Below, piece after piece: positions 27,530 to 61,899 of a stretch of 64,000 nucleotides of DNA. The notes beneath the pieces are model-generated. The model did no database searches. It was not told the origin of the DNA and was given only the letters and a program-made list of their open reading frames with translations. The translations under genes were made by a program, and so were the position numbers. Position 1 is the stretch's first letter; the number at the start of each line of letters is the position of its first letter. The DNA is from Chiloscyllium plagiosum. Taxonomy: Eukaryota. The stretch lies in NCBI RefSeq assembly GCF_004010195.1, contig NC_057752.1, positions 3,647,639-3,711,638 of the forward strand. Reading direction: 5' to 3'.

Positions 27530-28455
27530 GAGGAGTGGCAGATGGAGTTTAGTGGAAATAAATGCAAGGCGTTGCATTTTGGTAAAAGAAACCAGGGTAG
27601 GACTTACACCATTAATGCTGGGCCCTGGGGGGAGTGTGGTCAAACAGAGATACCTAGGGGTTCAGGTGCATCGCTCCTTGAAAGTGGCCTCACAGGTAAT
27701 TAGGGTGGTGAGGAAGCTGTTTGGTATGCTTGCCTTCATCAGTCAGAGCGAAAGTGGGTACTGCAGACGCTGGAGATTAGAGTCACGATTAGAGTGGTGC
27801 TGGAAAAGCACAGCAGGTCAGGCAGCATCCCAGGAGCAGGAAAATCGACGTTTTGGGCAAAGGCCTTTCATCAGGAATCATTCCTGATGAATGGCTTTTG
27901 CCCGGAACGTCGATTTTCCTGCTCCTCGGATGCCGCCTGACCTGCTGTGCTTTTCCAGCACCATTCTAGTCTTGACCCTTTATCAGTCAGAGCACTGAGT
28001 ACAACAGTTGGGATATCACATTGCAGCTGTACAGGACGTTGGTCAGGCCATATTTGGAATATCGCATGTAATTCTGTGTTATTAAACAGGAAAGGATACC
28101 AAGACTGGAGGGCTTGAGTTATAAGGAGAGGCTGGGACGTTTTTCACTGGAGCACAGAAGAGGTGACCTTATAGAGGTTTACAAAAATCTTGAGGGGCGC
28201 AGAAAAGGTGATTAGCCAAGGTCTTTTCCCTTGGGTTGGGGAGTTCAAACCTAGAGGGCATAGGTTTAAGGTGAGAGGGGAAAGGTTGAGAAGGGACCTG
28301 ATGGGGTAACCTTTCCACACAGAGTCTATGGGATGATCTGCCAGAGGAAGTGGTAGAGATGGGTACAACTGTAATATTTAAAAGGCAAATGGGTAGAAAA
28401 CCTGACTGACCTGGACAAGTTAGGCCGAAGGGCCTGTTTCAGTAACTCTATGACT
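27530..28455 (+). mobile_element. HER1/CR1 LINE fragment interrupted by a PLE hairpin
   Basis: WQMEF..KC..LHFG..YLGVQVHRSLKVASQVIRVVRKLFGMLAFISQS, resuming after 27993. Confidence 0.85.
27750..27976. mobile_element. Penelope-like fold-back insertion (P1) with two back-to-back degenerate hammerhead cores
   Basis: Inverted arms centred at ~27879; TSD CCTT(C/T)ATCAGTCAGAGC at 27733-27749 and 27977-27993; cores CTGATGA-ATGGCTTTTGCCC-GGAACGTC (+) and CTGATGA-AAGGCCTTTGCCC-AAAACGTC (-). Confidence 0.85.
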
Positions 28456-29399
28456 TCAACTTTAATAGTGAGGACAGTAGATTCAAATGTCCTAACCTTT
28501 GTCTGGGTCAACTCAAGGCTTCACTACTCGGAAGAAGAATGTAATGGCACTGATTGTGTCATAATAACCAGGTTGTTTTTATCTATTTGTTTTAGAAGGA
28601 TTCAAAAGCAGGTACGTTATCTTGGGGCACTAGAGTTGCAGTTAGTGATGGCTTCAAACACGCCCAGTGTGGCATTCATGATCAATGCCCCGCTCTTCCT
28701 GCATTGCTGTGGGATTGGATCTCAGCCCCGGCCTCAAACTGCGCTGGTGTGATTTATATACTCCCTGCACTCTCATTATGATCTCTCCCAATGGGAGTTC
28801 GAGCTCAGTGGTAACTGCCATCATATGGAGGGCCAGCTTTTAATGCTTTTCATTCACATCTGCTGGGAAATGGATTCAAATTGGCTCAATTCAGTTTCAT
28901 TTAGGACCTTTTATCAGCCATCAGAGAGAGAGAAGGCTTTGATCTATCTTGGCTGAATTCAAATCCAGGTCTTAGTGATGAAAGAGCAGTGATCTTGCTG
29001 ACTACATCTCTTTCATTGTGCTCCTATTAAACATAATTTCTGTACTCTTGGCATTAGGTGGCAAGATAAATAAATGCTTCCCAGTTTCTTGGGGGAAGAA
29101 AGGGTAAAAGTGTGCGTTTCGCATTTGAATAACAATACCCACGGTTGCGATTTTAGGTTTGATGGAAATCTTTACTCTGTGGCTCCTATTTTATAGCAGC
29201 CCTGCAGATGTAGACAGGGCTGCATTACCTATTATTTCATTCAGTAAACCTCAGATAATCAAAAGACCATGTAATGGATGAAATGTCTCACAGAACTACA
29301 CTGAATTTGGATTGGCAGATGTCAGCAACCAGCCTTTTCAGACAACATAGGTTGTACTTGGAACACTTGCTAAACAGCTCTGCATTACACCGATAGGTT

Positions 29400-29937
29400 A
29401 TTTACAAACTCCAAGCATGCATTGTTTTGAAAAGTTCCCAATGGAGCAACAACCCCTCATTCCCCATCTGACTCCCCAAAGCCTGTCCACAAGAGCATGA
29501 TGGGATACCTCCTGCTTTGCCTGGATGGGGGCAGCTCCAACAGCACTCGAGCAGCTCGATACCAAAGCGGCCCCCACTTGATTGGACGTCCATCCATCCC
29601 TTCATCAATAATGCCAAGTGGTACAATGTGTGTCATTCACAAGTGCCCCTTTGGCACCTTGCAAACTTGGGACCTCAACCACCTCAAAGGACAGGGGCAG
29701 CAGATGCAGGGAGTGGGGTGGGGGGGTTTGGGGGGAAAATCATGACCTCGAAATCAAATGGCATCATGACTTCGGAATTATATCCCCATTCCTTCACTGT
29801 CACCCGGCTCAAAATCTCGGAACTCCTTCCTTTAACAGCACAATGAGTGTATCGACACTAATTGAACAGCATTGGTTTAGGAAGGTAGCTCACCACCATC
29901 TTTTCAGAGGCAGTTCGGGATAAGCAAATAAATGCAA
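29400..29937 (+). mobile_element. Second CR1-like LINE 3' fragment; its tail is shared with SINE family B
   Basis: ..GGAAGGTAGCTCACCACCATCTTTTCAGAGGCAGTTCGGGATAAGCAAATAAATGC resembles the SINE-B tail GGCAATTAGGGATGGGCAATAAATAC. Confidence 0.6.
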
Positions 29938-31844: not shown

Positions 31845-32545
31845 CTTTGATTTGATTTATTATTGTCACATGTAGCTCGGTACAGTGAAAAGTTTTGTTT
31901 TGTGTGCAGTACAGGCAGATCACACCGTACAAAGTGCATTAGGGTGATAGAACAGAGCGAGGAATACAATGTTACAGCTGCAGAGAAGCTGCGCAATGAA
32001 TGAGATCAACATTAAATTTGAACTTGGAGAGGTCCAGTCAGAAGTCTGATAACAGCAGGGAAGAAGCTGTTCTTGAATCTGTTAGTCTGTGTGTTTAAGC
32101 TTTTGTATCCTCTGCCTGAGGGAAGAGGTTGGAAGAGATTGTAACTGGGGTGGGAGGGGTCTTTGATGATGTTGCTGCCTTCTCGAGGCAGTGGGAAGTG
32201 TAGATGGAGCCAGTGGATGGGAGGTTGGTTTGGGTGATGGACTGGGCTGTGTTCACAACTCTCTGTAGTTTCTCACTGTCCTGGGCAGAGCAGTTGCCGT
32301 ACCAAGCTGTGATCCATCTGGATAGAATGCTTTCCATGGTACATCTGTAACGTTGGGGAGAGTCTTTAAGGACATGCTGAATTTGCGTAGCCTCCTGAGG
32401 GAGTAGAGACATTGTTGTGCTTTATTGACCATCACATCAACATGGGTGGACCAGGACAGATTGTTGGTGATCGTCACTCCCAGGAACTTGATGCTCTCGA
32501 CCCTCTCCACTTCAACTCCACTGATGCAGACTGGGGCGTGCCCTC
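31845..32545 (-). mobile_element. Rex1/Babar LINE RT C-terminal fragment and tail
   Basis: VEVERVESIKFLGVTITNNLSWSTHVDVMVNKAQQCLYSLRRLRKF.. then TMESILSRWITAWYGNCSAQDSEKLQRVVNTAQSIT. Confidence 0.88.
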
Positions 32546-32929
32546 CTCCCTCTGCCTCTATGACCCTTCCAGGCAGTGAGCTGCAGATCCCTCCCGCCCT
32601 CTGACTGAAAAAGAAACGTTCAAAGCTCAGCCTTTCAGCGGAGGTGCAGGATGCATTGCGAGTAAAATACAGCCAGAAATGCCTACCGCCCTGTAGAATG
32701 ACTTTAGGGGATAAAGAAGGGACTTGCAGATAGGACCTCATCATATTTCCAAGAGACGGCCTGAAGGGCTTCACACAAACTGCACGGCTTCACATCACAA
32801 GGATAGCTTTCAGCTTTCACACAGAAAATTCCTGCAAAGAAATTCCGGGATGACCAACCGGTGGTCAATTGTTTTGGATGGTGTTGGGGTGAAGGATGAA
32901 AGCTGGCCAGGGCTGCGCGAAAATGAGGG

Positions 32930-33226: not shown

Positions 33227-34585
33227 TGAAGGGCTCATGCCCAAAACGTCGATTCTCCTGCTCTTTGGATGCTGCCTGACCTGCTGCGCTTTTCCAGCAA
33301 CACATTTTCAATCTAATCTAATATTCTGGTTGCTTCTCAGTAGCTCCTTGGGATTATGAACATCTATTTACACCTGCCATTTTCTTACCTGATCAGAAAG
33401 GTGACAAGGCATCCCTTTTGAAAGCAAATTATCAAACAACGATAGGAATAGGTTTTCTTCCCCCTTTTTTAAAAATGTTGTACATTAAGTAGCATTTACT
33501 GATGACATCACAAAGAGCTAGTGACTTGGAGGAGACACTGAACCGACAGTGCAAAAGAGCTGAATTAATTTTAGTGTAGCTGCAGTCCATTAACCCAGGG
33601 TGTTTTAGTGAACTTGTCAGTTTAATTGCGTCATTAATTCAGCCCCCTCATGTTGCTGGTTTCAGTAATTTCTGCAAGTAACTTCCAAATGATCTTATTA
33701 CCAAGCGCCATTTAAACAATATTCCAAACCTCCAACAGAAAGACAGGCTGAACAGAAAGAGCAGTTGAAGCTGCTTTTCAGAAGAGAATGATGCCCACAG
33801 TCCTTCTGGCTTGGATCGAACTATTAATTTGGTTCCTGAAAAACCTTGACTTCATTCTTTATCGAGAAGGATGGCTTGGATGTGACAAGTACCTGGTTTG
33901 TACCTTCACAATGTCCTGATTACATTTGAAATCTAACTGGCTCCCTGGGGGAACCTTCCTCTGTTCAGGATTGCAGAGTGAAATCAAAATGACGTGTAAG
34001 GACAATGGTCATGATTTGGCTTCAGATGAGAAACAGAGGACATCCTGTCACTCTTGTTTCAAAATACCAAGGTCCCCAAGTAACCAGGGACCATGAACAA
34101 GTGAGCCATGATGAAAATGTAAGGAAATTAAATGGAATATAAATTAAAAAAAACAACCTTCCTGACTGTGCTTGTAGTCTGCTGAACAATTAGGTAAAGA
34201 CAGAAATAGAAAATTGGCCACTTATTTATTAACTGCTGGTCAGAGCGCTGCTTTGTCAAATTGTTGTGATAGTCCCCCTTATTCTCTTTAAGGTATTAAG
34301 GCATGCTCTGGCCCAGTATTTCAGTGATGGCTGCCTTACAACACTGCAACCAAATGATCTTTTTCAATTCTAAGTCTTTATTTTTCAGATCTGTCACTTT
34401 AATCCCAGAAGTAATGCACTTAGTTTGAAATTTGTCATATCCCGGCTGAAAACTGCCTCTTCCCCACCACATCCAAACTTTGTTCCAGCTTGGACAACCA
34501 TGGCTTCACTTGCCAATGTCCAGTTGTGTGCTGTTCCCTCTCACAGACCCTCTGCCTCCTAATCCTTCTTTAAGATCCTCCTGTA

Positions 34586-37500
34586 CTGGAGGCTGTGGCG
34601 GGAAGGTGAGGCCCAGACTGGAGGCTGTCGCGGGGAGGTGAGGCCCGGACTGGAGGCTGTCACGGGGAGGTGAGGCCCGGACTGGAGGCTGTCACGGGGA
34701 GGTGAGGCCCGGACTGGAGGCTGTCGCGGGGAGGTGAGGCCCAGACTGGAGGCTGTCGCAGGAAGGTGAGGCCCAGACTGGAGGCTGTCACGGGGAGGTG
34801 AGGCCCGGACTGGAGGCTGTCGCGGGGAGGTGAGGCCCGGACTGGAGGCTGTCGCGGGGAGGTGAGGCCCGGACTGGAGGCTGTCGCGGGGAGGTGAGGC
34901 CCGGACTGGAGGCTGTCGCGGGGAGGTGAGGCCCGGACTGGAGGCTGTCGCGGGGAGGTGAGGCCCGGACTGGAGGCTGTCGCGGGGAGGTGAGGGCCGG
35001 ACTGGAGGCTGTCGTGGGGAGGTGAGGGCCGGACTGGAGGCTGTCGCGGGGAGGTGAGGCCCGGACTGGAGGCTGTCGCGGGGAGGTGAGGCCCGGACTG
35101 GAGGCTGTCATGGGGACGTGAGGCCCGGACTGGAGGCTGTCTCGGGAAGGCGAGGGCCAGAGTGGAGGCCGTGGCAGGGAGGTGAGGCCCGGACTGGAGG
35201 CCATGGCAGGGAGGTGAGGCCCGGACTGGAGGCCATGGCAGGGAGGTGAGGCCCGGACTGTAGGCCGTCATGGGGACGTGAGGCCCGGACTGGAGGCCGT
35301 CTCGGGGAGGTGAGGCCCGGACTGGAGGCCGTCATGGGAACATGAGGCCTGGACTGGAGGCAATCATGGGGATGTGATGCCCGGACTGGAGGCCATCTCA
35401 GGAAGGCAAGGGCCAGAGTGGAGGCTGTGGCGGGGAGGTGAGGGCCGGACTGGAGGCTGTCGCGGGGAGGTGAGGGCCGGACTGGAGGCTATCATGGGGG
35501 TGTGAGGCCCGGACTGGAGACTGTCCTGGGGACGTGAGGCCCGGACTGGAGGCTGTCTCAGGAAGGCGAGGGCCGGAGTTGAGGCCGTGGCGGGGAGGTG
35601 AGGCCTGGAATGGTGGCTGTCGCAGGGAGGTGAGGACGGACTTGAGGCTGTCTTGGGGAGGTGAGGCCCTGACTGGAGGCTGTCATGGGGACGTGAGGCA
35701 TGGACTGGAGGCTGTCTCGGGAATGTGAGGCCCGGTGTGGAGGCGGTCACGGTGAGGTGATGCCCGGACTGGAGGCTATGGCGGGGAGGTGAGGCACAGA
35801 CTGGAGGCTGTGTAAGGGGATTGTAGGCCCGGAATGGAGGCTGTCTTGCTAAGGGGAGGGCCGGAGTGGAGGCTGTGGCGGGGAGATGAGGTCCGGATTG
35901 GAGGCTATCACGGGGAGGTGAGGACAGGACTGGAGGCTGTCACGGGTAGGTGAGGCCCAGATCGGAGGCTGTGGCAGGAAGGTGAGGCCCGGACTGGAAG
36001 GATGGCTCGGGGAGGTGTGGCCCAGACTGGAGCCTCTCACGGGGAGGTGAGGCCCGGAGTGGAGGCCGTTATTGGGACGTGAGGCCCGGACTGGAGGCCG
36101 TCATGGGGACGTGAGGCCCGGACTGGAGGCCGTCATGGGGACGTGAGGCCCGGACTGGAGGTCGTCATGGGGACGTGAGGCCCGGACTGGACGTCGTCAT
36201 GGGGACGTGAGGCCCGGACTGGAGGCTGTCTCGGGAAGGCGAGGGCCAGATTGGAGGCTGTGGCGGGAAGGTGAGGCCAGGACTGGAAGGATGTCTCGGG
36301 GAGGTGAGACCTGGACTAAAATCTGTCACGGGGAGGTGAGGCCTGGACTGGAGGCTGTCACGGGGAGGTGAGGCCCGGACTGGAGGCTGTCATGGGGAGG
36401 TGAGGCCCGGACTGGAGGCTGTCGCGGGGAGGTGAGGGCCGGACTGGAGGCTGTCGCGGGGAGGTGAGGCCCGGACTGGAGGCTGTTGCGGGGAGGTGAG
36501 GCCCAGACTGGAGGCCGTCATGGGGACATGAGTCTCGGACTGGGGGCTTTCCCGGGAAGGTGAGGCCCGGACAGGAGGCTCGGTTTCGAGGTTGTGGCAT
36601 GGAGGTGAGGCCCGGACTGGAAGCTGTCACGGAGAGGTGAGACCCGGACTGTAGGCTGTCTCGGGAATGTGAGGCCCGGTGTGGAGGCTGTCACGGGGAG
36701 GTGAGGCCCGGACTGGAGGCTGTCACAGGGAGGTGAGGCCCAGACTGGAGGCTGTGACAGGAAGGTGAGGCCCGGACTGGAGGCTGTGGCGGGGAGGTGA
36801 GTACTGATTGGAGGCTGTCACAGGGAGGTGAGGCCCGAATTGGAGGCTGTGGTGGGCAGATGAGGCCTGGACTGGAGGCTGTGGCGGGGAGGTGAGGCCC
36901 GGACTGGAGGCTGTGGCGGGGAGGTGAGGCTCGGACTGCAGGCTGTCTCGGGAAGGTGAGGCCCGGACTGGAGTCTGTCACAGGGAGGTGAGGCTCGGAC
37001 TGGAGGATGTAGTGGGCAGGTGAGGCCGGGACTGGAGGCTGTAGCGGGCAGGTGAGGCCCGGACTGGAGGCTGTCTCGGGAAGGCGAGGGCCGGAGTGGA
37101 GGCTGTCGCGGGGAGGTGAGGCCCGGACTAGAGGCTGTAGCGGGCAGGTGAGGCATGGACTGGAGGCTGTAGCGGGCAGGTGAGGCCCGGACTGGAGGCT
37201 GTCTCGGGAAGGCGAGGGCCGGAGTGGAGGCTGTCGCGGGGAGGTGAGGCCCGGACTGGAGGCTGTCTCGGGGAAGTGGGCCCGGACTGGAGGTTGTCTC
37301 GGGGAGGTGAGGCCCGGACTGGAGGCTGTCTCAGGGAGGTGATGCCCGGACTGGAGGCTGTCACGGGGAGGTGATGCCCGGACTGGAGGCTGTCACGGGG
37401 AGGTGAGGCCCGGAGTGAAAGCTATCAGGGGGAGCTGAGGCCCGGACTGGAGGCTGTGGCAGGCAGGTGATGCCCGGACTGGAGGCTGTGGCGGGGAGGT

Positions 37501-40500
37501 GAGGCCCAGACTGGAGGCTGTGGCAGGGAGGTGAGGCCCAGACTGGAGCCTCTCCCGGGGAGGTGAGGCCCAGACTGGAGTCTGTCACAGGGAGGTGAGG
37601 CCCGGACTGGAGTCTGTCACAGGGAGGTGAGGCTCGGACTGCAGGCTGTCTCGTGGAGGTGATGCACGGACTGGAGGCTGTCACGGGGAGGTGAGGCCCG
37701 GACTGGAGGCTGTCACAGGGAGGTGAGGCCCAGACTGGAGTCTGTCAAAGGGACGTGAGGCCCGGACTGGAGGCTGTGGCGGGGAGGTGAGTACTGATTG
37801 GAGGCTGTCACAGGGAGGTGAGGCCCGGACTGGAGGCTGTCTCGGGAAGGCGAGGGCCGGAGTGGAGGCTGTGGCGGGGAGGTGAGGCCCGGACTGGAGG
37901 CTGTCTCGGGGAAGTGGGCCCGGACTGGAGGTTGTCTCGGGGAGGTGAGGCCCGGACTGGAGGCTGTGACAGGCAGGTGAGGCCCGGGCTGGAGGCTGTG
38001 GCGGGTAGGTGACGCCCGGTCTGGAGGCTGTGGCAGGGAGGTGAGGCCCAGACTGGAGCCTCTCACGGGGAGGTGAGGCCCAGACTGGAGGCTGTCTCGT
38101 GGAGGTGATGCACGGACTGGAGGCTGTCACGGGGAGGTGAGGCCCGGACTAGCGGCTGTCACAGGGAGGTGAGGCCCGGACTGGAGTCTGTCACAGGGAG
38201 GTGAGGCCCAGACTGGAGTCTGTCACAGGGAGGTGAGACCCGGACTGGAGTCTGTCACGGGGAGGTGAGGCCCGGACTGGAGCCTCTCACGGGGAGGTGA
38301 GGCCCGGACTGGAGCCTCTCACGGGGAGGTGAGGCCCAGACTGGAGTCTGTCACAGGGAGGTGAGGCTCGGACTGCAGGCTGTCTCGGGAAGGTGAGGCC
38401 CGGACTGCAGTCTGTCACAGGGAGGTGAGGCTCGGACTGGAGGCTGTTGCGGGGAGGTGAGGCCCGGACTGGAGGCTGTGGCGGGGAGGTGAGGCCCGGA
38501 TTGGAGGCTGTAGCAGGCAGGTGAGGCCCGGACTGGAGGCTGTAGCGGGCAGGTGAGGCCCGGACTGGAGGCTGTCTCGGGAAGGCGAGGGCCGGAGTGG
38601 AGGCTGTGGCGGGGAGGTGAGGCCCGGACTGGAGGCTGTCTCGGGGAAGTGCGCCCGGACTGGAGGTTGTCTCGGGGAGGTGATGCCCGGACTGGAGGCT
38701 GTCGCGGGGAGGTGAGGCCCGGAGTGAAAGCTATCAGGGGGAGCTGAGGCCCGGACTGGAGGCTGTGGCAGGCAGGTGAGGCCCGGACTGGAGGCTGTGG
38801 CGGGGAGGTGAGGCCTGGACTGGAGGCTGTGGCGGGTAGGTGACGCCCGGACTGGAGGCTGTGGCAGGGAAGTGAGGCCCAGACTGGAGCCTCTCACGGG
38901 GAGGTGAGGCCCAGACTGGAGGCTGTCTCGGGGAGGTGAGGCCCGGACTGGAGGCTTTCTCGGGGAGGTGAGGCCCGGATCGGGGAGGTGAGGCCCGGAC
39001 TGGAGGCTGTCTCTGGAAGGTGAGGCCCAGTATGGAGGCTGCCACGGGGAGGTGAGGCCCGGACTGGAGGCTGTGGCGGGGAGTTGAGGCTCGCTCTGCA
39101 GTCTGTGGCGGGGAGGTGAGGCCCGGACTGGAGGCTGTGGCGGGGAAGTGAGGCCCGGATTGGAGGGCGTGGCTGGGAGGTTATGCCTGGATTGGACGGT
39201 GTGGCGGGGAGATGAGGCCTGGATTGGACGGTGTGGCGGGGAGATGAGGCCTGGATTGGAGGCTTTCACAGGGTGGTGAGGCTCGGTTTCGAGGTTGTGG
39301 CATGGAGGTGAGGCCCGGACTGGAGGCTGTCACAGAGAGGTGAGGCCCGGACTGTAGGCTGTCCCGGGAATGTGAGGCCCGGTGTGGAGGCTGTCACGGG
39401 GAGGTGAGGCCCAGACTGGAGGCTGTGGCAGGAGGTGAGGCCCGGACTGGAGGCTGTGGCAGGCAGGTGAGGCCCGGACTGGAGGCTGTGGCGGGGAGCT
39501 GAGGCCCGCTCTGGAATCTGTGGTGGGGAGGTGAGTCCCAGACTGGAGGCTGTCTCGGGAATGTGAGGCCCGGTGTGGAGGCTGTCACGGGGAGGTGAGG
39601 CCCGGACTCGAGGCTGTGGCAGGCAGGTGAGGCCTGGACTGGAGGCTGTCCCGGGGAGGTGAGGCCCGGTATGGATGCTGCGACGGGGAGGTGAGGCCCG
39701 GACTGGAGGCTGTCGCGGGGAGGTGAGGCCCGGACTGGAGGCTGTCACGGGGAGGTGAGGCCCAGACTGGAGGCTGTCAAGCGGATGTGAGGCCCGGAGT
39801 GGAAGCTGTCATGGGGAAGTGAGGCCAGGACTGGAGGCTGTGGCGGGGAGGTGAGGCACGGACTGGAGGCTGTCAAGCGGATGTGAGGCCCAGAGTGGAG
39901 GCTGTCACGGGGAGATGATGCCCGGACTGGAGGCTATGGCGGGGAGGTGAGGCCCGGACTGGAGGCTGTGTAAGGGGATTGTAGGCCTGGAATGGAGGCT
40001 GTCTTGCTAAGGGGAGGGCCGGAGTGGAGGCTGTGGCGGGGAGGTGAGTCCCAGACTGGAGGCTGTCTCGGGAAGATGAGGCCCGGATTGGAGGCTGTCA
40101 CGGGGAGGTGAGGTGAGGCCCAGACTAGAGGCTGTCACAGGGACGTGAGGCCCGGACTGGAGGCTGTCACGGGGAGGTGAGGCCCGGATTGGAGGCTGTG
40201 GTGGGGAGATGAGGCCTGGATTGGAGGCTGTCATGGGGAGATAAGGCCCAGATTGGAGGCTGTGGTGGGCAGCTGAGGCCAGGAATCGAGGCTGTGGTGG
40301 GGAGGTGAGGCCCGGATTGGAGGCTGTGGCGGGAAGGTGAGGCCCGGATTGGAGGCTGTGGCGGGAAGGTGAGGCCCGGATTGGAGGCTGTGGCAGGGAG
40401 GTGAGGCCAGGGTTGGAGGCTGAGGCGGCGAGATGAGGCCCGGACTGGAGGCTGTGGCAGGGAGGTGAAGCCCGGAGTGTAGGCTGTCACGGGGAGGTGA

Positions 40501-43092
40501 GGCCCGGACTGGAGGCTGACACGGGGAGGTGAGGCCCGAAATGGAGGCTGTCACCGGGAGGTGAGGCCCAGACTGGGGGCTGTCTCGGGGAGGTGTAGCC
40601 CGGACTGGGGGCTGTCTCGGGAATTTGAGGCCCGGTGTGGAGGCTGCCACGGGAAGGTGATGCACGGAGTGGAGGCAGTGGCGGGGAGGTTATGCCCAGA
40701 CTGGAGGCTGTGCCGAGCAGGTGAGGTCCAGACTGGAGGCTGTGCCGGGGAGGTGAGGCCCGGATTGGAGGCTGTTGCGAGGAGGTGAGGCCCAGACTGT
40801 AGGCTGTGGCGGGCAGGTGAGGTCCAAACTCGAGGCTGTGCCGGGGAGGTGAGGCCTGGATTGGAGGCTGTGGTGGGGAGGTGAGGCCCAGACTGTAGGC
40901 TGTGGTGGGGAGGTGAGGCCCGGACTGGAGGCTGTGGCGGGGAATTGAGGCTCGCTCTGCAGTCTGTGGCGGGGAGGTGAGGCCCAGACTGGAGGCTGTG
41001 GCGGGGAAGTGAGGCCCGGATTGGAGGGTGTAGCGGGGAGATGAGGCCTGGATTGGACGGTGTGGCGGGGAGATGAGGCCTGGATTGGAGGCTTTCACAG
41101 GGTGGTGAGGCTCGGTTTTGAGGTTGTGGCATGGAGGTGAGTCCCGGACTGGAAGCTGTCACGGAGAGGTGAGGCCCGGACTGTAGGCTGTCTCGGGAAT
41201 GTGAGGCCCGGTGTGGAGGCTGTCACGGGGAGGTGAGGCCCGGACTGGAGGCTGTGGCAGGGAGGTGAGGCCCGGACTGGAGGCTGTGGCGGGGAGGTAA
41301 GGCCCGGAGTGGAGGCTGTCACGGTGAGGTGAGGCCCGGACTGGAGGCTGTCGCGGGGAGGTGAGGCCCGGACTGAAGGCTGTCGCGGGGAGGTGAGGCC
41401 CGGAATGGAGGCTGTCGCGGGGAGGTGAGGCCCAGACTGGAGGCCGTCATGGGGACATGAGTCTCGGACTGGGGGCTTTCCCGGGAAGGTGAGGCCCGGA
41501 CAGGAGGCTGTCTCGGGAAGGTGAGGCGCGTTGTGGAGGCTGTGGCAGGGAGGTGAGGCCCAGACTGGAGGCTGTGGCAGGGAGGTGAGGCCCGGACTGG
41601 AGTCTGTCTCGGGAAGGTGAGGCGCGTTGTGGAGGCTGTGGCAGGGAGGTGAGGCCCAGACTGGAGGCTGTGGCAGGGAGGTGAGGCCCAGACTGGAGTC
41701 TGTGGCGGGGAGGTGAGGCCCGGACTGGAGGCTGTGGTGGGGAGGTGAGGCCCGGACTGGAGGATGTGGTGGGGAGGTGAGGCCCGGACTGGAGGATGTG
41801 GTGGGGAGGTGAGGCCCGGACTGGAGGATGTGGTGGGGAGGTGAGGCCCGGACTGGAGGCTGTGGTGGGGAGGTGAGGCCCGGACTGGAGGATGTGGTGG
41901 GGAGGTGAGGCCCGGACTGGAGGATGTGGTGGGGAGGTGAGGCCCGGACTGGAGGATGTGGTGGGGAGGTGAGGCCCGGACTGGAGGATGTGGTGGGGAG
42001 GTGAGGCCCGGACTGGAGGATGTGGTGGGGAGGTGAGGCCCGGACTGGAGGATGTGGTGGGGAGGTGAGGCCCGGACTGGAGGATGTGGTGGGGAGGTGA
42101 GGCCCGGACTGGAGGATGTGGTGGGGAGGTGAGGCCCGGACTGGAGGCTGTGGTGGGGAGGTGAGGCCCGGACTGGAGGATGTGGTGGGGAGGTGAGGCC
42201 CGGACTGGAGGATGTGGTGGGGAGGTGAGGCCCGGACTGGAGGATGTGGTGGGGAGGTGAGGCCCGGACTGGAGGATGTGGTGGGGAGGTGAGGCCCGGA
42301 CTGGAGGATGTGGTGGGGAGGTGAGGCCCGGACTGGAGGATGTGGTGGGGAGGTGAGGCCCGGACTGGAGGATGTGGTGGGGAGGTGAGGCCCGGACTGG
42401 AGGATGTGGTGGGGAGGTGAGGCCCGGACTGGAGGCTGTGGTGGGGAGGTGAGGCCCGGACTGGAGGATGTGGTGGGGAGGTGAGGCCCGGACTGGAGGA
42501 TGTGGTGGGGAGGTGAGGCCCGGACTGGAGGATGTGGTGGGGAGGTGAGGCCCGGACTGGAGGATGTGGTGGGGAGGTGAGGCCCGGACTGGAGGATGTG
42601 GTGGGGAGGTGAGGCCCGGACTGGAGGATGTGGTGGGGAGGTGAGGCCCGGACTGGAGGATGTGGTGTGGAGGTGAGGCCCGGACTGGAGGCTGGGGTGG
42701 GGAGGTGAGGCCAGGACTGGAGGCTGTGGTGGGGAGGTGAGGCCCGGACTGGAGGCTGTGGTGTGGAGGTGAGGCCCGGACTGGAGGCTGGGGTGGGGAG
42801 GTGAGGCCAGGACTGGAGGCTGTGGTGGGGAGGTGAGGCCCGGACTGGAGGCTGTGGTGGGGAGGTGAGGCCCGGACTGGAGGCTGTGGTGGGGAGGTGA
42901 GGCCCGGACTGGAGGCTGTGGTGTGGAGGTGAGGCCCGGACTGGAGGCTGGGGTGGGGAGGTGAGGCCCGGACTGGAGGCTGTGGTGGGGAGGTGAGGCC
43001 CGGACTGGAGGCTGTGGTGTGGAGGTGAGGCCCGGACTGGAGGCTGTGGTGGGGAGGTGAGGCCCGGACTGGAGGATGTGGTGGGGAGGTGA
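34586..43092 (+). repeat. ~8.5-kb G-rich minisatellite, 32-bp unit GGACTGGAGGCTGTCGCGGGGAGGTGAGGCCC (~265 units)
   Basis: Period read directly (GGACTGG at 34871 and 34903); homogeneous ends and a diverged middle. Confidence 0.98.
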
Positions 43093-45235: not shown

Positions 45236-45854
45236 TTGTAGCTGCCATCGTCTGACTGGCCATTAAACTGAAGTCCCTGTTGATGTCAGAGACCAAGCCC
45301 ATGGCACTGTTGAAAGAAGAGTAGGAAGTTCTTTCTAGTATCCTGGGGCATATTTATCACCTGACCAACATCACTAAAAAACAGATCAAGGTCTGAAACT
45401 CAATTTCAGCTGCCAGGAAATTGCCAGTTTGTGGTGTGACTGAGCTTAAAGAAACAGCAAGAAAACTACACCTGGGGAAACCGAATAAAAACACGACATC
45501 AGTGTCACAGGGAGGCAGTGAAGCACTTTACAAGCCTGGAGAGGTATTAACTTGCAGCTGGGCATGGAACTGAAGCTATGAGCAACCCACTTGCTCCACG
45601 CAATGGAGCCATCGCTAATGATGGTTTGGTGTCGAAGGGCGAGGCAGAGCTAACCACCAGGTCAAGAAAATCATCATCATTTCCAAAACCGCTATGGCCT
45701 CGCCCCCCCCCAATTCTACCTTTGTAGTCTCGGCCAACCCTCCAAGAAACCCGTTTTCTTTCACCTTTGGCGCCTTGTGGTTTTTAATCACCTTACTGTT
45801 AGCAGACTTGCCAAGGACTCAAGCTGTTGACTTCCCTCTAGAAGAGATGATTTA

Positions 45855-46045
45855 GAGATGCCAGTGTTGGACTGGGGGGGGGAGGACAAAGTTAAAAACC
45901 ACACAACACCAGGGTTATAGTCCAACAGCTTTATTTGGGAGCACTAGCTTTCAGACAACCACCTGATGAAGGAGCAGCGCTCCGAAAGCTAGTGCTTCCA
46001 ATTAAACCTGTTGGACTATAACCTGGTGCTGTGTGATGTTTAACT
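45855..46045. mobile_element. Penelope-like fold-back insertion (family P2)
   Basis: Inverted arms ~45890-45952 and ~45984-46045 (AGTTAAAAACCACACAACACCAGG.. / ..CCTGGTGCTGTGTGATGTTTAACT). Confidence 0.8.
45960..45994 (+). ncRNA. Minimal type-I hammerhead ribozyme motif, apparently intact (P2)
   Basis: CAC-CUGAUGA-A-GGAGC(AGC)GCUCC-GAAA-GCUA-GUG: stem I CAC/GUG, 5-bp stem II, palindromic AGCU stem III, cleavage triplet CUA. Confidence 0.8.
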
Positions 46046-46683: not shown

Positions 46684-47125
46684 AAGCAGGAGGAAAACAG
46701 CAAGCCAGGCAGCCCCAGGAGGTGGAGAAGTCGACGTTTCGGGTGTAACCCTTCCTCAGGACTGGGCGTGGGTGTGGGGGGAGGCGGGGGCAGGGTGGTG
46801 AGGTGGAGATAGGTGAAGACAGGTAGAGGGTACGACCTGGTTGGTCAATGGGAGGAATGAGTCCGGTTGGTAGCTGGAAGGAAGGGTCAGTCAGAGAGAT
46901 GGAAGGGAGGGGGAGCAGAGTTGGGGGATGGGGAGGGAGGTTATTTGAAACTGGGGAACTCAATGTTGAGTCCTCCGGTCTGTAGGCTGCCCAGGCGGAA
47001 GATGAGGTGTTGTTCCTCCAATTTGTGGTTTGGTTTGTTGTGGCAATGGAGGAGGCTGAGGATGGTCTTGTCGGAAAGGGAGTGGGAAAGGGAATTAAAA
47101 TGGGCAGTGACTGGGAGGTCTTGGC
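46684..47125 (-). mobile_element. Penelope-like element 3' end: GIY-YIG endonuclease C-terminus plus pLTR
   Basis: Minus-strand QDLPVTAHFNSLSHSLSDKTILSLLHCHNKPNHKLEEQHLIFRLGSLQTGGLNIEFPSFK*, followed by a terminal repeat carrying a hammerhead core. Confidence 0.85.
46729..46763 (-). ncRNA. Minimal type-I hammerhead ribozyme motif, apparently intact (P1-related)
   Basis: AGUC-CUGAGGA-A-GGGU(UAC)ACCC-GAAAC-GUC-GACU: perfect 4-bp stem I, 4-bp stem II, palindromic ACGU stem III, GUC cleavage triplet. Confidence 0.82.
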
Positions 47126-48479: not shown

Positions 48480-49239
48480 AGTGTCCAAAATGATTCCGTT
48501 ACTTGCAGTGAATAGACATCTTTCCCATGCTGGACATACCTTCTTGACCTTTTTGTGATCTTCTCCACAATATTAGTATCCTCTCCATTGTGTGTGATTA
48601 TCCTGCCCAGGTGGGCCTGGAGTAACTGGCAGCATAATGCAAGATCGGATCTGTTCTGCCAGGAATATGTTCTAGCTGCTGATTTACGACCTCGGTGCTT
48701 CTGCACGTCAATTGCTTTCCTGAGAGTAAGTTTCACCTCCCTTCGTTGCTGAGCTCTCATGATAGGATCCCTTATATCCTAATACAATCTGGTCTTTAAA
48801 TAGATTGTCTTGTAATTCTCCAAATTCATAGGGTTCTGCAAGCTGAGTTAATGAAGCCACATATGGATCAATGGATTTCTTTATATCTGGAGCCCTGGTA
48901 TCGAACACACACCGGTTCATAAGTCGCATTCACTTACAGGTTGAAGCAGGCTGTTAAGGCTTTCAAAATTTCTTCTCCTTTTTCCCAGAGAGATTTAGGG
49001 TGGATGACACTTTGAAACAGTCTCTCTCCAACAGTAATTGAAGTGTGGCTATTATATTATTTTATTAAACAAATTACAAAACAGTTTACAAAAAAAACTT
49101 TGACAGCTGTACACAAAAGACAGCAATTTTACAAGGGAGAGGAGCAGCAAAGCTAGGAGTGTGGCTATTATAAACTGCTCTGACTTGTTAAATAGATCTG
49201 TCATAATTTCACAATCCCAGCGTTTCCTTATTTTATAAA

Positions 49240-49392: not shown

Positions 49393-49985
49393 TCTCCCAT
49401 CATTTCAGGCAGAGCTTGGAGAGAAAGAGTTATCTCCATCGTGTCTTACCCAACATTTTAGCAGTGGCCTTTTATTTTGTTTTTTTTTCAGTTCCCTTGA
49501 ATTGGGTGTAGCTGTTTTCACAGTTCTAAACGTTCCTGTATCTCTCTGTCAGTTGCTGTGATTTTTTTTTTCTCTCTAGCTCTTCAACAATTAATATCAG
49601 TTCCACCTCTGACACCTCGCTCTGTGCTCACAAGCCAGCAGTCTGATCTGTACTCTGACTTTATTGAAACGTTTCACAAGATGGCTGCCTCCAATGTGTG
49701 CCTCAGACAGGAGATCACATGGGTATAGAAGACCAGGATGGAATTTTGTACACGACTGTGTTCTGATCCAAAGAGCTTTGGTCTTAAAGAATGACACGAT
49801 TGCATTCGGAGCAGTTCAGAGATCGTTTACTCAACTGATTCCTCAGATGAGTGAGTTAGATTCTGAGGAAAGGTTTCACAGGTTGGGTCTGCATCCATTG
49901 GAAACAGGAAGACAGGTGATCTTATTGAAACATGTAAGATTCTGAGGGGACTCAATAGGGCAGTTGGTGAAAGGATGTTTTCCCT

Positions 49986-50446
49986 GGATGTAGGTTTCTC
50001 GCTGAGCTGGAAGGTTCATTTCCAGATGTTTCATCACCATGCTAGGTAACATCTTCAGTGGGCCTCAGGTGAAGCACTGCTGAAAATTCCTGCTCTCTAT
50101 TTATATGTTTGGGTTTCTTTGGGTTGGTGATGTCATTTCTTGTGGTGATGTTATTTCCTGTGGTGAAGTCACTTCCTGTTCTTTTCCTCAGAAGGTAGTA
50201 GATGGGGTCTAACTCCCTGAGAAAAAGAACAGGTAGTGACTTCACCACAGGAAATAACATCACCAATCCAAAGAAACTCAAACATATAAATAGAAAGCAG
50301 GAATTTTCAGCAGTGCTTCGCCTGAGGCCCACTGAAGATATTACCGTGTAAGGTGATGAAACATCTGGAAATGAACCTTCCAGCTCAGCGAGAAACCTAC
50401 ATCCAAAACCTCAACCCGAGCTACAAATCTTCTCAAAACTCGCTAA
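49986..50446. mobile_element. Penelope-like fold-back insertion (family P3) with hammerhead-like cores in both arms
   Basis: ~190-bp inverted arms; 12-bp TSD GATGTTTTCCCT at 49974-49985 and 50447-50458; cores CCA-CUGAAGA-U-(G/A)UUACC..GGUGAU-GAAAC-AUC-UGG at 50022-50061 (-) and 50329-50368 (+). Confidence 0.85.
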
Positions 50447-51200
50447 GATGTTTTCCCTCTTCTGAGAGACAAGAGCCAGGGGAGACGTCGATACATCGAA
50501 ATATAGAAAATACAAGCAAAAGATGGTGGTTCGACCCATCAGTATTCCATTCAATATGACCATGGCTTACAGGGGTTGGTCTTTTGCTAACTATCTTTTT
50601 CTTTCTTAAATATAGTCAGCGACTTGGCCTACTCAGCCTTCTGTGGTACAGAATTCCACAGGCTCATCACTGCTTCACATTTTAGCTTTGTTTTGTTTAC
50701 TACTTTGTACCTGAGCTTTTTGTACTTAGGTATCTTTGTACCTGAGATGGTGCCTTGTGTAACGACATTCACCCTACTTGAGTACACATGACAATAAAAT
50801 CTGTGATTGAAGAAATTTCTCCTAATCTCAGTCCAAAATGGCCGACAAAAGTCCTGAGACTGTGTCCCTTTGTTCTGGAAAGCCAACCAGGGGAAACATC
50901 ACTCCAGCATCCAGTCCGTCTCTCTTTTTTCAAAGTGATTCTGAAATAACACGCGGTGAACTTGTTTTTCCTTTTGAAGTGGGCAACCTCATGTATATCC
51001 ACATTGTATTGCCTGTGCCATGCATTTCCTCACTCACTTGACTTGTCTTGAAGTCACATTACGTCCTCCTCACTAACCACAATCCCACTCAGTTTTGTAT
51101 CGTCAGCAAATTTGGAAATATCGTTTCTTCATGCAGATTGTTGATATGTTGAGGGAGTAGCTGGGGTCAAACATGATAAGAGGTATCCCATTGAAGATGG

Positions 51201-52417
51201 TGTCACACAGCTGGTCCCTTTTCTTTTCGAAAAGCTGTTCGTTTTCTCAAGGATACTGTGTCCTTTATTTTTTTTTCAGATGGGTTGTAAAAAGCCCCTG
51301 GCTCCGATCAGGCTGGTTTGGTACAGAGATGAAAAGGACTTTGAGAGACCTTTTGTTTATATGTAAACAGATGAGACTTCAGGCCAAAGTGGTCATGGTT
51401 TAGAAGTGACCTGTATAAAGCAAGGGGAGTGGTCAGCTCTCTAGATTAGATTAGATTACTTTACAGTGTGGAAACAGGCCCTTCGCCCCAACAAGTCCAC
51501 ACCGACCCGCCGAAGCGCAACCCACCCATACCCCTACATTTACCCCTTACCTAACACTATGGACAATTTAGCATGGCCAATTCACCTGACCTGCACATCT
51601 TTGGACTGGGAGGAAACTGGAGCACCCGGAGGAAACCCACGCAAACACGGGGAGAATGTGCAAACTCCACACAGTCAGTCGCCTGAGGCGGGAATTGAAC
51701 CCGGGTCTCTGGCACTGTGAGGCAGCAGTGCTAACCACTGTGCCACCGTGCCGCCCATTAGATTCCCTACAGTGTGGAAACAGGCCCTTCGGCCCAACAA
51801 GTCCACACCGACCATCCGAAGAATAACCCACCCAGACCCATTTCCCTCTGACTAATGCACCTAACACTATGGGCAATTTAGCATGGCCAATCCACCTGAC
51901 CTGCACATCTTTGGACTGTGGAAACGGGAGCACCCAAAGGAAACCCACCCGGACGCGGGGAGGATGTTCCACACAGACAGTTACCCAAGGCTGAAATCAA
52001 CCCCAGATCCCTGGCGCTATGAGGCTGCAGTGTTAACCACTGAGTCACCGTGCTGCTCTAGCTGAGCACTTCAGTCCAGAACTAGTTAGGAGTTCAGCTG
52101 GGTGGAAACAAGCTGCTAAAGTCTCTCTCTCCTTCTGCCCTTCTAACTTCACCCTGTAAGCATTTGTTCTATTATTACAGTGTTTGAAGGGGGTTTGATT
52201 ATTGGGATTGTTGTGCACATTCAGAACACCATAACTAAGTCTTTATTCTGTTCTTTGTGATTCATTGTGTAATTTTGTGAATAAAGTTTTGCCTATTTTA
52301 AAACGCTCACTCACTCCGGGTAATTTTCACTGTACACTTACTGATACAAATTGCAAAGTTATGGTCTGGGGCTGCCTGCTTAAGGACGTTTTGAGTGGTC
52401 TGGCCTAGTCCATAACA
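51201..52417 (+). mobile_element. Solo LTR (TG...CA) with 4-bp TSD, containing two HE1 SINEs
   Basis: TGTCAC...CATAACA; TSD ATGG at 51197-51200 and 52418-52421; same family as 4227-4856; inserted in a CR1 3' region. Confidence 0.85.
51445..52055 (-). mobile_element. Two tandem HE1 V-SINEs (51445-51757, 51757-52055)
   Basis: Two complete heads and tails; CTCTAG duplicated at 51439-51444 and 52056-52061. Confidence 0.9.
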
Positions 52418-52542
52418 ATGGAAGTGAGGAGAAATCTTTTCTCTCAGAGAGTCATGTGTCTATGAAACTCTCTCCCTTAGAGAGCAGTGGAGACAGAGTC
52501 ATTGGGTATTTTCATGGCTGTCATAGATAGATAGATTCTTGA

Positions 52543-52740
52543 TTAGAGTGGTGCTGGAAAAGCACAGCAGGTCAGGCAGCATCCGAGGAGCAGGAGAATC
52601 AACGTTTCGGGCAAAATGAAGGGCTTTTGCCCGAAACGTCGATTCTCCTGCTCCTCGGATGCTGCCTGACCTGCTGTGCTTTTCCAGCACCACTCTAATC
52701 TTGACTCTGATTTCCAGCATCTGCAGTCCTCACTTTTGCC
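52543..52740. mobile_element. Penelope-like fold-back insertion (P1)
   Basis: Inverted arms; TSD AT(A/C)GATAGATTCTTGA at 52527-52542 and 52741-52756; 5'-truncated core ATGAAGGGCTTTTGCCCGAAACGTCGATTC. Confidence 0.85.
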
Positions 52741-55271: not shown

Positions 55272-55568
55272 GGGTGGCATGGTGGCTCTGTGGTTAGCGC
55301 TGCTACCTCACGGCACCAGGGACCTGGCTTCGATTCCAGCCTCGGGCGACTGTCTGCATAGGGTTTGCACATTCTCCCCATGTCTGCGTGGGTTTCCTCC
55401 CACAGTCCGAAGATGTGTAGGTAAGGGTGGATTGGCCCTGGGGAATTGTGCAGACTAGGTGAACTAGCCATGGGAAGTGCAGGGTTACAGGAATGGGGTG
55501 AGTCTGAGCAGGATGCTCTTTGGAGGGTAAGTGTGGACTTGATGGTCTGCTCCCACACTGTAGGGATA
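55272..55568 (+). mobile_element. HE1-type V-SINE
   Basis: GGTGGCATGGTGGCTCTGTGGTTAGCGCTGC...CCACACTGTAGGGAT. Confidence 0.85.
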
Positions 55569-56169: not shown

Positions 56170-56535
56170 AACCAGGAGGAAGTGAGGGCGGCAGATGCTG
56201 GGATCAGAGTCGGAGCGTGTGGCGCTGGAAAAGCGCAGCAGGTCAGGCAGCATCTGAGTCTGGACAAAGTGGGGGGATTGGGAGGAGAAATTGTTGCGGG
56301 TGAGGACCAGTTCAGCCAAACGGATGAGAGCATCTATGGAAGGGTACTGGTTAGGTTGGCGTGAGAGGAAGAAACTGGGGGCTTTGAGGCCTTTGTCATA
56401 GTGGATGGATGTGTACAGGGACTGGATGTCCAGGGTGAAGATAAGGCACTGGGAGCCAGGGAAACGAAAGTCATGGAGGGCATGGGTGGTGTCCCGAACT
56501 GCCTGACTGGCTGTGCTTTTCCAGCACCACACTCT
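56170..56535 (-). mobile_element. Penelope-like RT fragment between inverted P1 terminal repeats
   Basis: VRDTTHALHDFRFPGSQCLIFTLDIQSLYTSI..ALIRLAELVLTRNNF, homologous to 62975-64000; P1 pLTR pieces on both sides in opposite orientation. Confidence 0.85.
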
Positions 56536-58936: not shown

Positions 58937-59118
58937 TTGGACCCAATATACTGGCCACTGCGGCAGACAGCTAAAACTGACAACCGGAAGCGGCAGAGAC
59001 AAACCACTATAAATGCCGGAGCAAACATCACAGAAGCGCTTCACAGGAGGCTCCCAAGCACTGAGGATGTCACCTAGACAGCGGACGAAATGTCTGCAAC
59101 ACAAATTCCCAGCTTGGT
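58937..59118 (+). mobile_element. Penelope-like 3' end (family P4) with hammerhead motif
   Basis: ..LDPIYWPL ORF end, then GCA-CUGAGGA-U-GUCAC(CUAGACA)GCGGAC-GAAAU-GUC-UGC at 59058-59097. Confidence 0.7.
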
Positions 59119-59261: not shown

Positions 59262-59372
59262 TGTGCTGAAACGCTGATTCTCCTGCTCCTCAGATGCTGC
59301 CTGACCGGCTGTGCTTTTCCAGCACCGCATGCTTCGACTCTGATCTTCAGCATCTGCAGTCCTCACTTTCTT
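59262..59372 (+). mobile_element. P1 Penelope terminal-repeat fragment
   Basis: GAAACGCTGATTCTCCTGCTCCTCAGATGCTGCCTGACC...ATCTGCAGTCCTCACTTT. Confidence 0.75.
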
Positions 59373-59611: not shown

Positions 59612-60692
59612 CCAGTGGTGTCCTTCAGGGATCAGTGTTGGGACCACAATTATTCACAATGTACATAGATAATTTGGGAGTTGGGAACCACGTGTAGGGT
59701 GTCAAAGTCTGCAGAAGAAACTATAATAAGTGGCAGAGCAAAATATGCTGAGGACTGGGAAACTTTGAGATGGAATACAATGTTAAGAAATGTAAAATCG
59801 TCCATTTTGGTAGGAGTAACAGGAAAAAGGATTATTACTTGAATGGTAAAAAGTTGCAGCATGAATCACAGANNNNNNNNNNNNNNNNNNNNNNNNNNNN
59901 NNNNNNNNNNNNNNNNNNNNNNNNNNNNNNNNNNNNNNNNNNNNNNNNNNNNNNNNNNNNNNNNNNNNNNNNNNNNNNNNNNNNNNNNNNNNNNNNNNNN
60001 NNNNNNNNNNNNNNNNNNNNNNNNNNNNNNNNNNNNNNNNNNNNNNNNNNNNNNNNNNNNNNNNNNNNNNNNNNNNNNNNNNNNNNNNNNNNNNNNNNNN
60101 NNNNNNNNNNNNNNNNNNNNNNNNNNNNNNNNNNNNNNNNNNNNNNNNNNNNNNNNNNNNNNNNNNNNNNNNNNNNNNNNNNNNNNNNNNNNNNNNNNNN
60201 NNNNNNNNNNNNNNNNNNNNNNNNNNNNNNNNNNNNNNNNNNNNNNNNNNNNNNNNNNNNNNNNNNNNNNNNNNNNNNNNNNNNNNNNNNNNNNNNNNNN
60301 NNNNNNNNNNNNNNNNNNNNNNNNNNNNNNNNNNNNNNNNNNNNNNNNNNNNNNNNNNNNNNNNNNNNNNNNTTAATGGTTGATGTCTTTTCGCTCGGAT
60401 GGGGGATTCAAGACTGGGGGGGGCACATTGTTAAGGTGAGAGGAGAGAGGTTTAAAAAAGACATGAGGGACAATTTTTTAACACAGAGGGTGGTTCACGT
60501 GTGGAATGAACTGTAAGAGGGAGTGCTGGATGGGGGTACAGTTACAACGTTTAAAAGACACTTAGATAACTAAATGAAGACAAAAGATTTGGAGGGACAT
60601 GGGCCAGGAGCAGGCAGGTGGGACTAGGTTAGTTTGGGATTGTGGACTGGTTGGACTGAGGGGTCTGTTTCTGAGCTGTGTGACTCTACAAC
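59612..60692 (+). mobile_element. CR1/HER1 fragments flanking the assembly gap
   Basis: SGVLQGSVLGPQLFTMYIDNL..MEYNVKKCKIVHFG before the gap; KVRGERFKKDMRDNFLTQRVVHVWNEL plus tail after it. Confidence 0.75.
59873..60372. other. Assembly gap (500 N)
   Basis: N characters. Confidence 1.
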
Positions 60693-61696
60693 TCTCAGAG
60701 CAGAGGAATTCTCCCCCTTGTGTTCTGCATGGTAGTTATCCCGTCATAAGCATCCTTATTACGAATGGTCCTCATTGCTGCTTGTGAGAGCTCTGTGTGT
60801 ACAAATTGGCCGCTGTGTTGCAACAATTATGACACCTCAGACGTATTTCATTCACGGTAAAGCATTTTAGGAGGATGAAAGGCACTATAGATGTTTTTCT
60901 TTGTATTTTTTTCTTCATTTTCCTCAGGGTTACACTGTAGGCAAAGCTCATGGGCCTAATAACCCTCCCTTGCTTCACTCATGTCGTAATTTTGTCGCTT
61001 AACCTTATTGGTGAACTGTTGTACTTTGGAAGGAAGTGAGTTAGAATCAACCCTTGTGTCACCTGGATACAAACGGAGCATCAAAAACTGTGATTTCTTA
61101 CCTCCTTTAGTCCAGGGATATTAGTTATCATATCCCAATTGTTACTCTGGGTGCCTTGATCATAGATCCTAGAATTTACATTAAGGGGGCCATTCGACCC
61201 ATCATTTCTGTACTGGTTCCCGAAAGAATAACCCAGCTAATCTCACTCTCCAGCCTCATGTCTATCGCCTTTTATATTCATCCCTTTCAAATATCTCTCC
61301 AGCTCTCTTTTGAAACCTCTGATGGAATCCCCCTCCACCACTCTCCCAGGCAGCACATTCCAATTCCTAACAACTCTGCGTAAAGATGCTTCTCCTCATC
61401 TCATTCCTAACTCTACTGCTGACAATCTTGAAATTCTGACCCCTAGTTACTACTGGCAACAGAATATCCTTCTTTCCCCTGGCAAAATTGGTAGCAATTT
61501 TGAAAACCTCAATAAGGTCACCTCTTAATCTTCTCTGTCCAATTTCTCTAACCTTCCCTTGTATCTGAAATCCCTCATTCCTGGTATCATTCTAGTAAAT
61601 CTCCTTTGCCCTCTCTTCAGTGGTTCAACACCTTTCCTTAAAGAAGGTGCCCAGAACTGAACACAATGCTCCAAATGAAACACAAGATTGTGTTAG

Positions 61697-61899
61697 GCAA
61701 AAGTGAGGACTGCAGATGCTGGAGATTAGAGTCTAGATTAGAATGTTGCTGGAAAAGCACAGCAGGTCAGGCAGCATCCGAGGAGCAGGAAAATAAACGT
61801 TCGGGCAAAAGCCCTTCATCAGAGTTACCCGAAACGTCGATTGTCCTGCTCCTCGGATGCTGCCTGACCTGTTGTCCTTTTCCAGCACCACTCTGATCC
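61697..61899. mobile_element. Penelope-like fold-back insertion (P1) at the end of a CR1 fragment (61180-61690, -)
   Basis: TSD AAACACAAGATTGT(G/A)TTAG at 61678-61696 and 61900-61918; minus-strand core CTGATGAAGGGCTTTTGCCCGAACGTT, with one A lost. Confidence 0.85.

Follow-up and report, generated by a model that had tools for sequence, protein, structure and literature searches.

We analysed a 64,000-nucleotide stretch of the Chiloscyllium plagiosum genome (contig NC_057752.1, positions 3,647,639 to 3,711,638; hereafter the window), which carries 19 fragments of the pseudo-long terminal repeats (pLTRs) of Penelope-like elements (PLEs). An initial annotation, made from the letters alone, had placed minimal hammerhead ribozymes of at least four PLE families here. 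We find five, designated P1, P1b, P2, P3 and P4, and hold it as nearly certain that the motifs belong to the pLTR ends of these families and are the known minimal hammerhead (Table 1). The explanation that we consider likely as a whole joins this identity to a second element, namely that the many short copies are stubs left by reverse transcriptase (RT) running off at the RNA cap.

Hammerhead motifs in the window

The eight sites named in the initial annotation all lie in pLTR repeats where it had put them, but only four satisfy a descriptor that asks for a stem I of at least 3 bp, CUGANGA followed by one base, a stem II of at least 4 bp and GAAA-NN-UH: 45963+ (P2), 46759- (P1b), and 50058- and 50332+ (P3). 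The same scan, a check that the annotation had proposed, found nothing in 100 dinucleotide shuffles of the window. The P4 site (59061+) is a near miss, with the full core and a 3-bp stem I; it fails through an A.G mismatch at stem II pair 4, which the majority of its family also carries. Three P1 sites are broken: 27841-27915 has G12A in one arm and GAAA changed to GGAA in the other, 52616-52645 lacks C3-U4-G5 entirely, and 61792-61823 has lost one A of GAAA as well as stem I. An Rfam search of the window, also proposed in the annotation, returned 12 matches at E≤5, none of them a hammerhead.

The core (CUGANGA, GAAA, UH and one extra base after A9) is kept at five window sites. The extra nucleotide, described from the beginning, is borne out, the family majorities matching the published Fig. 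S3 consensus. Single motifs fold no better than their shuffles (z -1.5 to +0.6), as expected because helix III is absent.

Penelope-like origin

A Penelope-like origin had been proposed for these repeats, and it is supported in each of the five families by GIY-YIG endonuclease remnants that precede the motif, together with a motif equal to the published consensus. In longer copies the end of the endonuclease lies 140-460 nt before the motif. The Pfam GIY-YIG matches have E values of 1e-5 (P1b), 5e-4 (P1), 2e-4 (P3) and 9e-3 (P4), that of P1b alone being above the cut-off; the P2 endonuclease has no Pfam match and matches the P1-type by blastp at 1e-7. An Atlas score of 0.95 links the sequences to HTH_animal and GIY-YIG clusters. 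YVDD/YIND-like and thumb fragments of a putative RT were seen, and none of four fragments matched Pfam; searches of the PDB gave nothing useful.

The CX2-5CxxC linker before the endonuclease is present in P1, seen in P1b and decayed in P2, and a 318-aa stretch of P4 has no Zn linker. P3 and P4 have an AUG at the start of stem II, where their open reading frame (ORF) begins as in the anole Poseidon element. P1, P1b and P2 are thus probably Neptune-type and P3 and P4 Poseidon-type, the clades being assigned by motif alone. The statement that the repeats share little other sequence holds between lineages only, the P3 and P4 endonucleases being 66% identical.

For a view beyond the window we used an unbiased sample of the 3.56-Gb genome, 140 evenly spaced 10-kb stretches with 1,334,550 called bases. 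Among P1-P4 copies in this sample, 168 of 365 carry an inverted arm, and 3' ends form two clusters. With their 5' truncation, inverted pLTRs and target duplications, P1-P4 fit the architecture of endonuclease-containing (EN+) PLEs. In the window, all five hairpins are flanked by target duplications of 7-14 nt, so each represents one insertion. The window contains no tandem array carrying the motif, the feature by which non-LTR retrozymes are recognized.

The sample also holds a further hammerhead-bearing family group, P5, with 67 fragments, mostly with a GUU/AUU triplet and a stem I of GUU/AAC or GCU/AGC (examples are L238:346-450 and L177, minus strand near 1430); its match in the window, at 19787-19834, is weak.

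Table 1. Penelope-like pLTR fragments and hammerhead features in the window
Feature	Position	Strand	Description
P1 hairpin of sequence 3' of the ribozyme only	706..833		absent from the initial annotation
P1 (Neptune-type) head-to-head hairpin	27744..27979		each arm starts at A(-4), a single C:G pair (27879) linking the two; core decayed in either arm; 12-nt target duplication
P1 stub from offset +4	33227..33302	+	absent from the initial annotation
P2 inverted arm	45848..45955	-	begins within stem II/GAAA, no core; 7-nt shared flank
P2 intact minimal hammerhead	45955..45994	+	G precedes the first base, A(-8)=45955; C3=45963, with the cut predicted after 45991
P2 poly(A) signal and poly(A)-site equivalent	46001..46021	+	AUUAAA 46001-46006; site equivalent 46018-46021
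P1b 5'-truncated copy (putatively Neptune-type)	46689..47120	-	endonuclease C-terminus 47114-46959; hammerhead intact (C3=46759), with the cut predicted after 46733
P3 (putatively Poseidon-type) inverted pair	49985..50447		hammerheads 50058- and 50332+; stem III CpG-decayed; AUG opens stem II; 12-nt target duplication
P1 hairpin, no hammerhead	52533..52740		junction took out core CUG; 9-nt target duplication
P1 stubs without core (three)	56180-56258, 56499-56533, 59269-59369	-, +, +	
P4 (putatively Poseidon-type) truncated copy	58937..59118	+	endonuclease C-terminus; hammerhead C3=59061, stem II mismatched
P1 hairpin	61697..61898		minus-arm core decayed; 14-nt target duplication

Abundance in the genome

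The descriptor matched 26 times in the sample and never in 10 shuffles, which extrapolates to about 69,000 intact-looking motifs genome-wide (45,000-102,000), if the large contigs are representative. This is a floor for full-core motifs, because the descriptor misses a P1 36-mer with a U.U pair in stem I that by itself has 28,555 exact copies in the genome. A P2 hammerhead 37-mer has 1,673 exact copies, and each family query returned hundreds to thousands of candidate genome copies. The 432 pLTR fragments in the sample correspond to about 1.1 million genome-wide.

Covariation of the stems

Stems I and II covary between families, as had been claimed. Across 13 representatives, 83.5% of the stem cells are paired, against 52.8% after shuffling and 22-42% in slid registers, with two P2 rows of the alignment off by one column, which lowers the first figure. 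Among 165 sample copies selected on the core and not on pairing, 82% of the seven stem pairs form, against 65% (at most 68%) with shuffled partners. These controls leave kinship among the copies in place.

Stem I changes in register between GCA/UGC, UCA/UGA, CCA/UGG, CAC/GUG, GUC/GAC, UUC/GAA and GUU/AAC. Families do have complementary stems of their own, as the initial annotation held, but the AGUC/GACU that it gave for P1 is that of P1b (46729). The principal stem I of P1 itself, AUUC/GAUU, contains a U.U mismatch and is found in 53 of 116 copies, UUC/GAA occurring in 7 of the 116. CAC/GUG is found in 19 of 25 P2 copies, and the 11 copies of putative Poseidon type have mostly GCA/UGC (5) or UCA/UGA (4), with CCA/UGG in one. 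An apparent AAUC/GAUU subfamily turned out to consist of hairpin junctions. The palindromic, loop-less stem III reads ACGU in 66 of 116 P1 copies (43 more show CpG decay), AGCU in 24 of 25 P2 copies and ACGU in 7 of 11 P3/P4 copies. In the window it stands undecayed in P1b and P2, and the P3 and P4 copies are CpG-decayed, as the annotation had allowed.

A young subfamily, P1c (L246, L267, L143 and L229), has a perfect stem I, AUUC/GAAU, restored, with AAUAAA about 76 nt after the first base of the core; P1c and P1 form a natural pair bearing on the U.U mismatch.

The window copies would be poor candidates for cleavage as dimers, because their paired motifs lie on opposite strands, leaving one sense motif per transcript. 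At L143, two P1-type hammerheads lie in direct tandem on the minus strand (4608 and 4734, 126 nt apart) and could in principle form a dimer.

Where copies end

Offsets are given relative to C3, the first base of the core (in the P2 copy of the window, A(-8) is 45955 and C3 is 45963). Copies that reach the core frequently end at its upstream edge: the 5' end falls in the bin +4 to -15 in 102 of 163 P1 copies (63%) and 39 of 54 P2 copies (72%), and the end rate in this bin is 5-25 times that found elsewhere in P1 (0.002-0.011 per nt). The share may be inflated, because the bin also collects copies for which the sample has no long relative. When loci were selected on the core alone, 8 of 28 young P1 loci (29%) and 17 of 28 P2 loci extended upstream, as judged by eye, which puts the P2 edge share in that set at 39%. 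On a finer map the peaks lie at -4 in P1 (20 of 257 ends, 11 of them with G) and at -8/-9 in P2 (6 of 6 with G at -8). The RNA run X19 repeats the edge in 152 loose ends and a hairpin joint, a signal that reflects genomic copies only; run X20 gave no matching reads. The P5 profile is uninformative, as this group has no long reference copy.

Three other features of these maps were set aside. A P2 peak at +31 is taken as an artefact of subfamily differences, only 6 of 74 P2 copies lacking the upstream GAAA stem; a fixed AG start in P2 arose because the DNA search favours rare words; and a splice acceptor does not account for the edge, the family sequence before the A being C-rich and not AG.

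Were the ribozyme to cut the template in vivo, so that the cut sets the insertion ends, copies would start at the cut, and they generally do not. The ends at the predicted cut number 2 of 252 in P1 and 1 of 91 in P2 (3 of 257 P1 ends on the finer map), and 74 P2 copies yielded no clear start there. Exact genome matches with A or G before the cut number 286, against 4,078 before -4, in a comparison with different 3' anchors and no neighbour control. Anole elements with mutated hammerheads still insert, as far as the available part of PMC11167929 describes. The conservation of the core across families and the few P1 ends at the cut would suit such cutting, but we regard it as extremely improbable.

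An unlikely, though more serious, alternative is that structure produces the pile-up. RT would stall or switch template after unfolding the hammerhead, or the antisense strand would prime itself, and an adjoining G would come from the inverted arm, microhomology or terminal addition by RT. The end rate in P1 is indeed already raised within the ribozyme (0.011 per nt), and 50 of the 102 P1 and 26 of the 39 P2 edge ends are hairpins; the accessible text of PMC3846280 ascribes junction palindromes to self-priming. However, P3 and P4 have longer stems yet little pile-up, the ends fall on an initiator-like A at constant spacing from a TATA-like box, and the G excess is specific to one position and is also seen in solo P1 copies.

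The extra G and upstream signals

An untemplated 5' G is accepted as a sign of cap copying in L1 and SVA (PMC4859970, in part). Genome-wide, the base before the P1 AUUC is the family C in 12,282 cases, and otherwise G in 2,747, A in 1,331 and T in 515; one base further out G numbers 496 and A 389, a significant difference (p=2e-10). Before the P2 start, the family C is found 9,008 times, G 1,055 times and A or T 761 times, with 34 A among the first 100 of the latter class listed (counted by hand); one base further out, A and G together number 683, with 56 G and 44 A among the first 100 listed. The ratio of G to A is thus 2.1 at the P1 position and about 4.1 at the P2 position, against 1.3 one base out in both, on a background of 21% G and 29% A. 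Solo P1 junctions have G in 8 of 15 cases (p=0.02, after removal, by eye, of a duplicate G row and of 14 rows with the subfamily T).

Upstream, TATAAA stands at -40 in 10 of 28 P2 loci and TTTAT at -35 to -37 in 31 of 116 P1 copies. The P1 and P2 ends lie 31-32 nt after TTTAT and TATAAA, respectively.

Poly(A) site in P2

In run X19, a long P2 copy (paralog L279) collects 463+89+536 = 1,088 reads with loose poly(A) ends at +55 to +58, where genomic DNA has only two A. The site lies 18 nt after A(A/U)UAAA and is followed by a GU-rich stretch; read depth falls across it from 1,198 to 194. The reads are mostly 88-95% alike to the P2 copy, and the signal is present in 24 of 28 loci. Depth is unchanged at the predicted P2 cut, so that the motif is uncut in the P2 RNAs of X19, many of which are mutated.

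This poly(A) signal also fits the proposal that the stubs are a separate non-autonomous family, retrozyme- or short interspersed element-like, amplified through circular RNA. Fixed ends and very high numbers agree with that proposal, and retrozymes do derive from pLTRs (bioRxiv 10.64898/2026.07.22.740005, as far as available). We nevertheless find it highly unlikely. The stubs have no upstream promoter and no A-tails and are not tandem, their two 3' end positions lie about 30-40 nt apart like PLE tails, and they grade into long copies with ORF remnants, upstream family sequence being present in 29% of young P1.

Other features of the window

An 8.5-kb GC-rich minisatellite occupies 34585-43093 (32-bp units, about 265 copies), and the repeat itself accounts for the long open frames found there. 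A 53-bp tandem array with 36 copies and 90% matches (838-2737) adjoins the P1 hairpin at 706-833. Two similar CUGAUGA-containing stretches at 30122 and 31103, about 980 bp apart and without stems, are likely a local duplication and not hammerheads. A second dispersed repeat, about 150-180 bp long and without relation to the hammerhead families, has many copies on both strands, at 455-627, 10066-10191, 24867-25025, 48335-48522, 51608-52053 and 55274-55455. An open frame on the minus strand (32256-32789) has a match of just 27 residues to Pfam ALKBH8_N (E 8e-5); it is presumably of LINE origin, which is our guess. Runs of N cover 19237-19274 (38 bases) and 59873-60372 (500 bases).

Proposed mechanism

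We think it fairly likely that the short copies of the putative Neptune-type families are cDNAs primed at an internal site of an uncut RNA and extended to its capped 5' end. RNA polymerase II would start at the first base of stem I, an A, in P1 (-4) and immediately upstream of stem I in P2 (-8), about 31 nt past the TATA-like box. As in the anole Poseidon element, the RT-endonuclease would nick both target strands and prime inside the RNA at two sites; RT would then run off at the capped start, adding a G by copying the cap. Priming on one strand would leave a solo stub of 90-130 bp, and priming on both would leave a target duplication around a head-to-head hairpin. The hairpin at 27744-27979, with both arms beginning at A(-4), would be an example of two-strand priming with run-off. 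Long copies may come from read-through RNA or from the 3' repeat. We infer the start site, the cap and any cleavage; the predicted ribozyme may cut rarely, late or only with a protein, removing a capped 30-37-nt leader or a 3' tail.

In a retrovirus, promoter, start, poly(A) signal and priming site follow one another through U3-R-U5, and the minus-strand strong-stop cDNA ends at the cap. The P2 repeat may act in the same way, since promoter, start, ribozyme, poly(A) signal and two priming sites appear in that order; the ribozyme would lie inside R, and the stub would be an integrated product resembling strong-stop DNA. Unlike the retroviral case, nicked target DNA would prime, the short cDNA itself would be integrated, and neither a tRNA primer nor an integrase would take part.

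Several observations weigh against copying to the cap. No intact RT domain and no full-length element were recovered from the sequences searched. P3 and P4 show no clear pile-up (3 of 18 ends in the bin), and a guessed P4 start at -19 has no G excess (17 G, 22 A and 61 T of 100). AUUC is absent in 41% of young P1 copies, so that ends spread over about -5 to +2, and the P1 box is TTTAT and not a canonical TATA. The G excess in solo copies comes from those 15 P1 junctions and 1 of 2 in P2; in hairpins, which make up about half of the stubs, the inverted arm is rich in G where the two arms meet, a confounder. The single raw RNA run is biased toward 3' ends and lists no position at which the starts or ends of many molecules accumulate. 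Finally, the poly(A) reads may stem from host transcripts of a few loci, and X19 may derive from a related species.

Relation to known systems

Minimal hammerheads in metazoan PLE pLTRs, with weak cleavage as dimers, were described by Cervera and De la Pena in 2014 (PMC4209133). The available part of that paper and our data have in common CUGANGA followed by H, G10.1-C11.1, the palindromic 15.2-16.2, a short stem I and no loop III, as well as mostly solo truncated copies, several families per genome and opposite-strand pairs. Its counts of about 4,000 in the coelacanth and 9,000 in Xenopus compare with about 69,000 here, obtained with different descriptors. In the parts accessible, its alignment has no cartilaginous fish and its text no breakpoint, cap or poly(A) analysis. 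The motif class is therefore already known, and what we add is the abundance, the cap-like edge and a used poly(A) signal in P2. We found no paper on PLE hammerheads of cartilaginous fish in the mainly open-access literature searched; a 2026 preprint on related elements, seen in part, includes one chondrichthyan.

The anole Poseidon PAc (Frangieh et al. 2024, PMC11167929) has an RT-endonuclease that, according to the available text, nicks both strands and starts cDNA synthesis at two sites some 110-120 nt inside the RNA. P3 and P4 are like it in having an AUG where stem II begins; further likenesses of the families studied here are a tail formed by two 3' ends, extension of both strands and the absence of RNA ends at the cut. 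For PAc, insertion was shown biochemically and, in that text, the RNA 5' end is unmapped, whereas the pile-up described here lies in the Neptune-type families. With EN+ PLEs as presented in the portions available of PMC8557442 and PMC3846280, our families have in common 5' truncation, inverted pLTRs, a 30-40 bp tail, target duplication and the Neptune CX2-5CxxC linker, and a predicted TATA plus initiator in a rotifer pLTR is a further likeness. There, in contrast, hairpins are ascribed to self-priming, and those portions mention no cap G and no used poly(A) site. Penelope of Drosophila virilis likewise has promoter and initiator within the pLTR; in the available account (PMC2377424), however, the internal promoter is TATA-less and transcription starts away from the ribozyme edge, 46 nt upstream of a 75-nt intron whose end falls at helix I. 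Animal non-LTR retrozymes also carry type I hammerheads from pLTRs, but in the part of the preprint available (bioRxiv 10.64898/2026.07.22.740005) they form tandem arrays, whereas the window copies are solo or inverted.

The role of the PLE hammerhead has been called unclear (PMC8557442), and in vitro the ribozyme is dispensable for insertion (PMC11167929), as far as the accessible parts of both papers go. We tentatively put forward that Neptune pLTRs are analogues of U3-R-U5 in which the hammerhead is transcribed first and stem I serves as the initiator, that hundreds of thousands of cDNAs with a copied cap map the start, and that the ribozyme may be a protein-gated decapping or de-tailing switch and not a processor of the template. 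The roughly one million pLTR fragments in this genome allow single-base statistics on where cDNA synthesis stopped. If that stop is the capped start, the template would be uncut and the ribozyme would sit at the 5' tip of the RNA.

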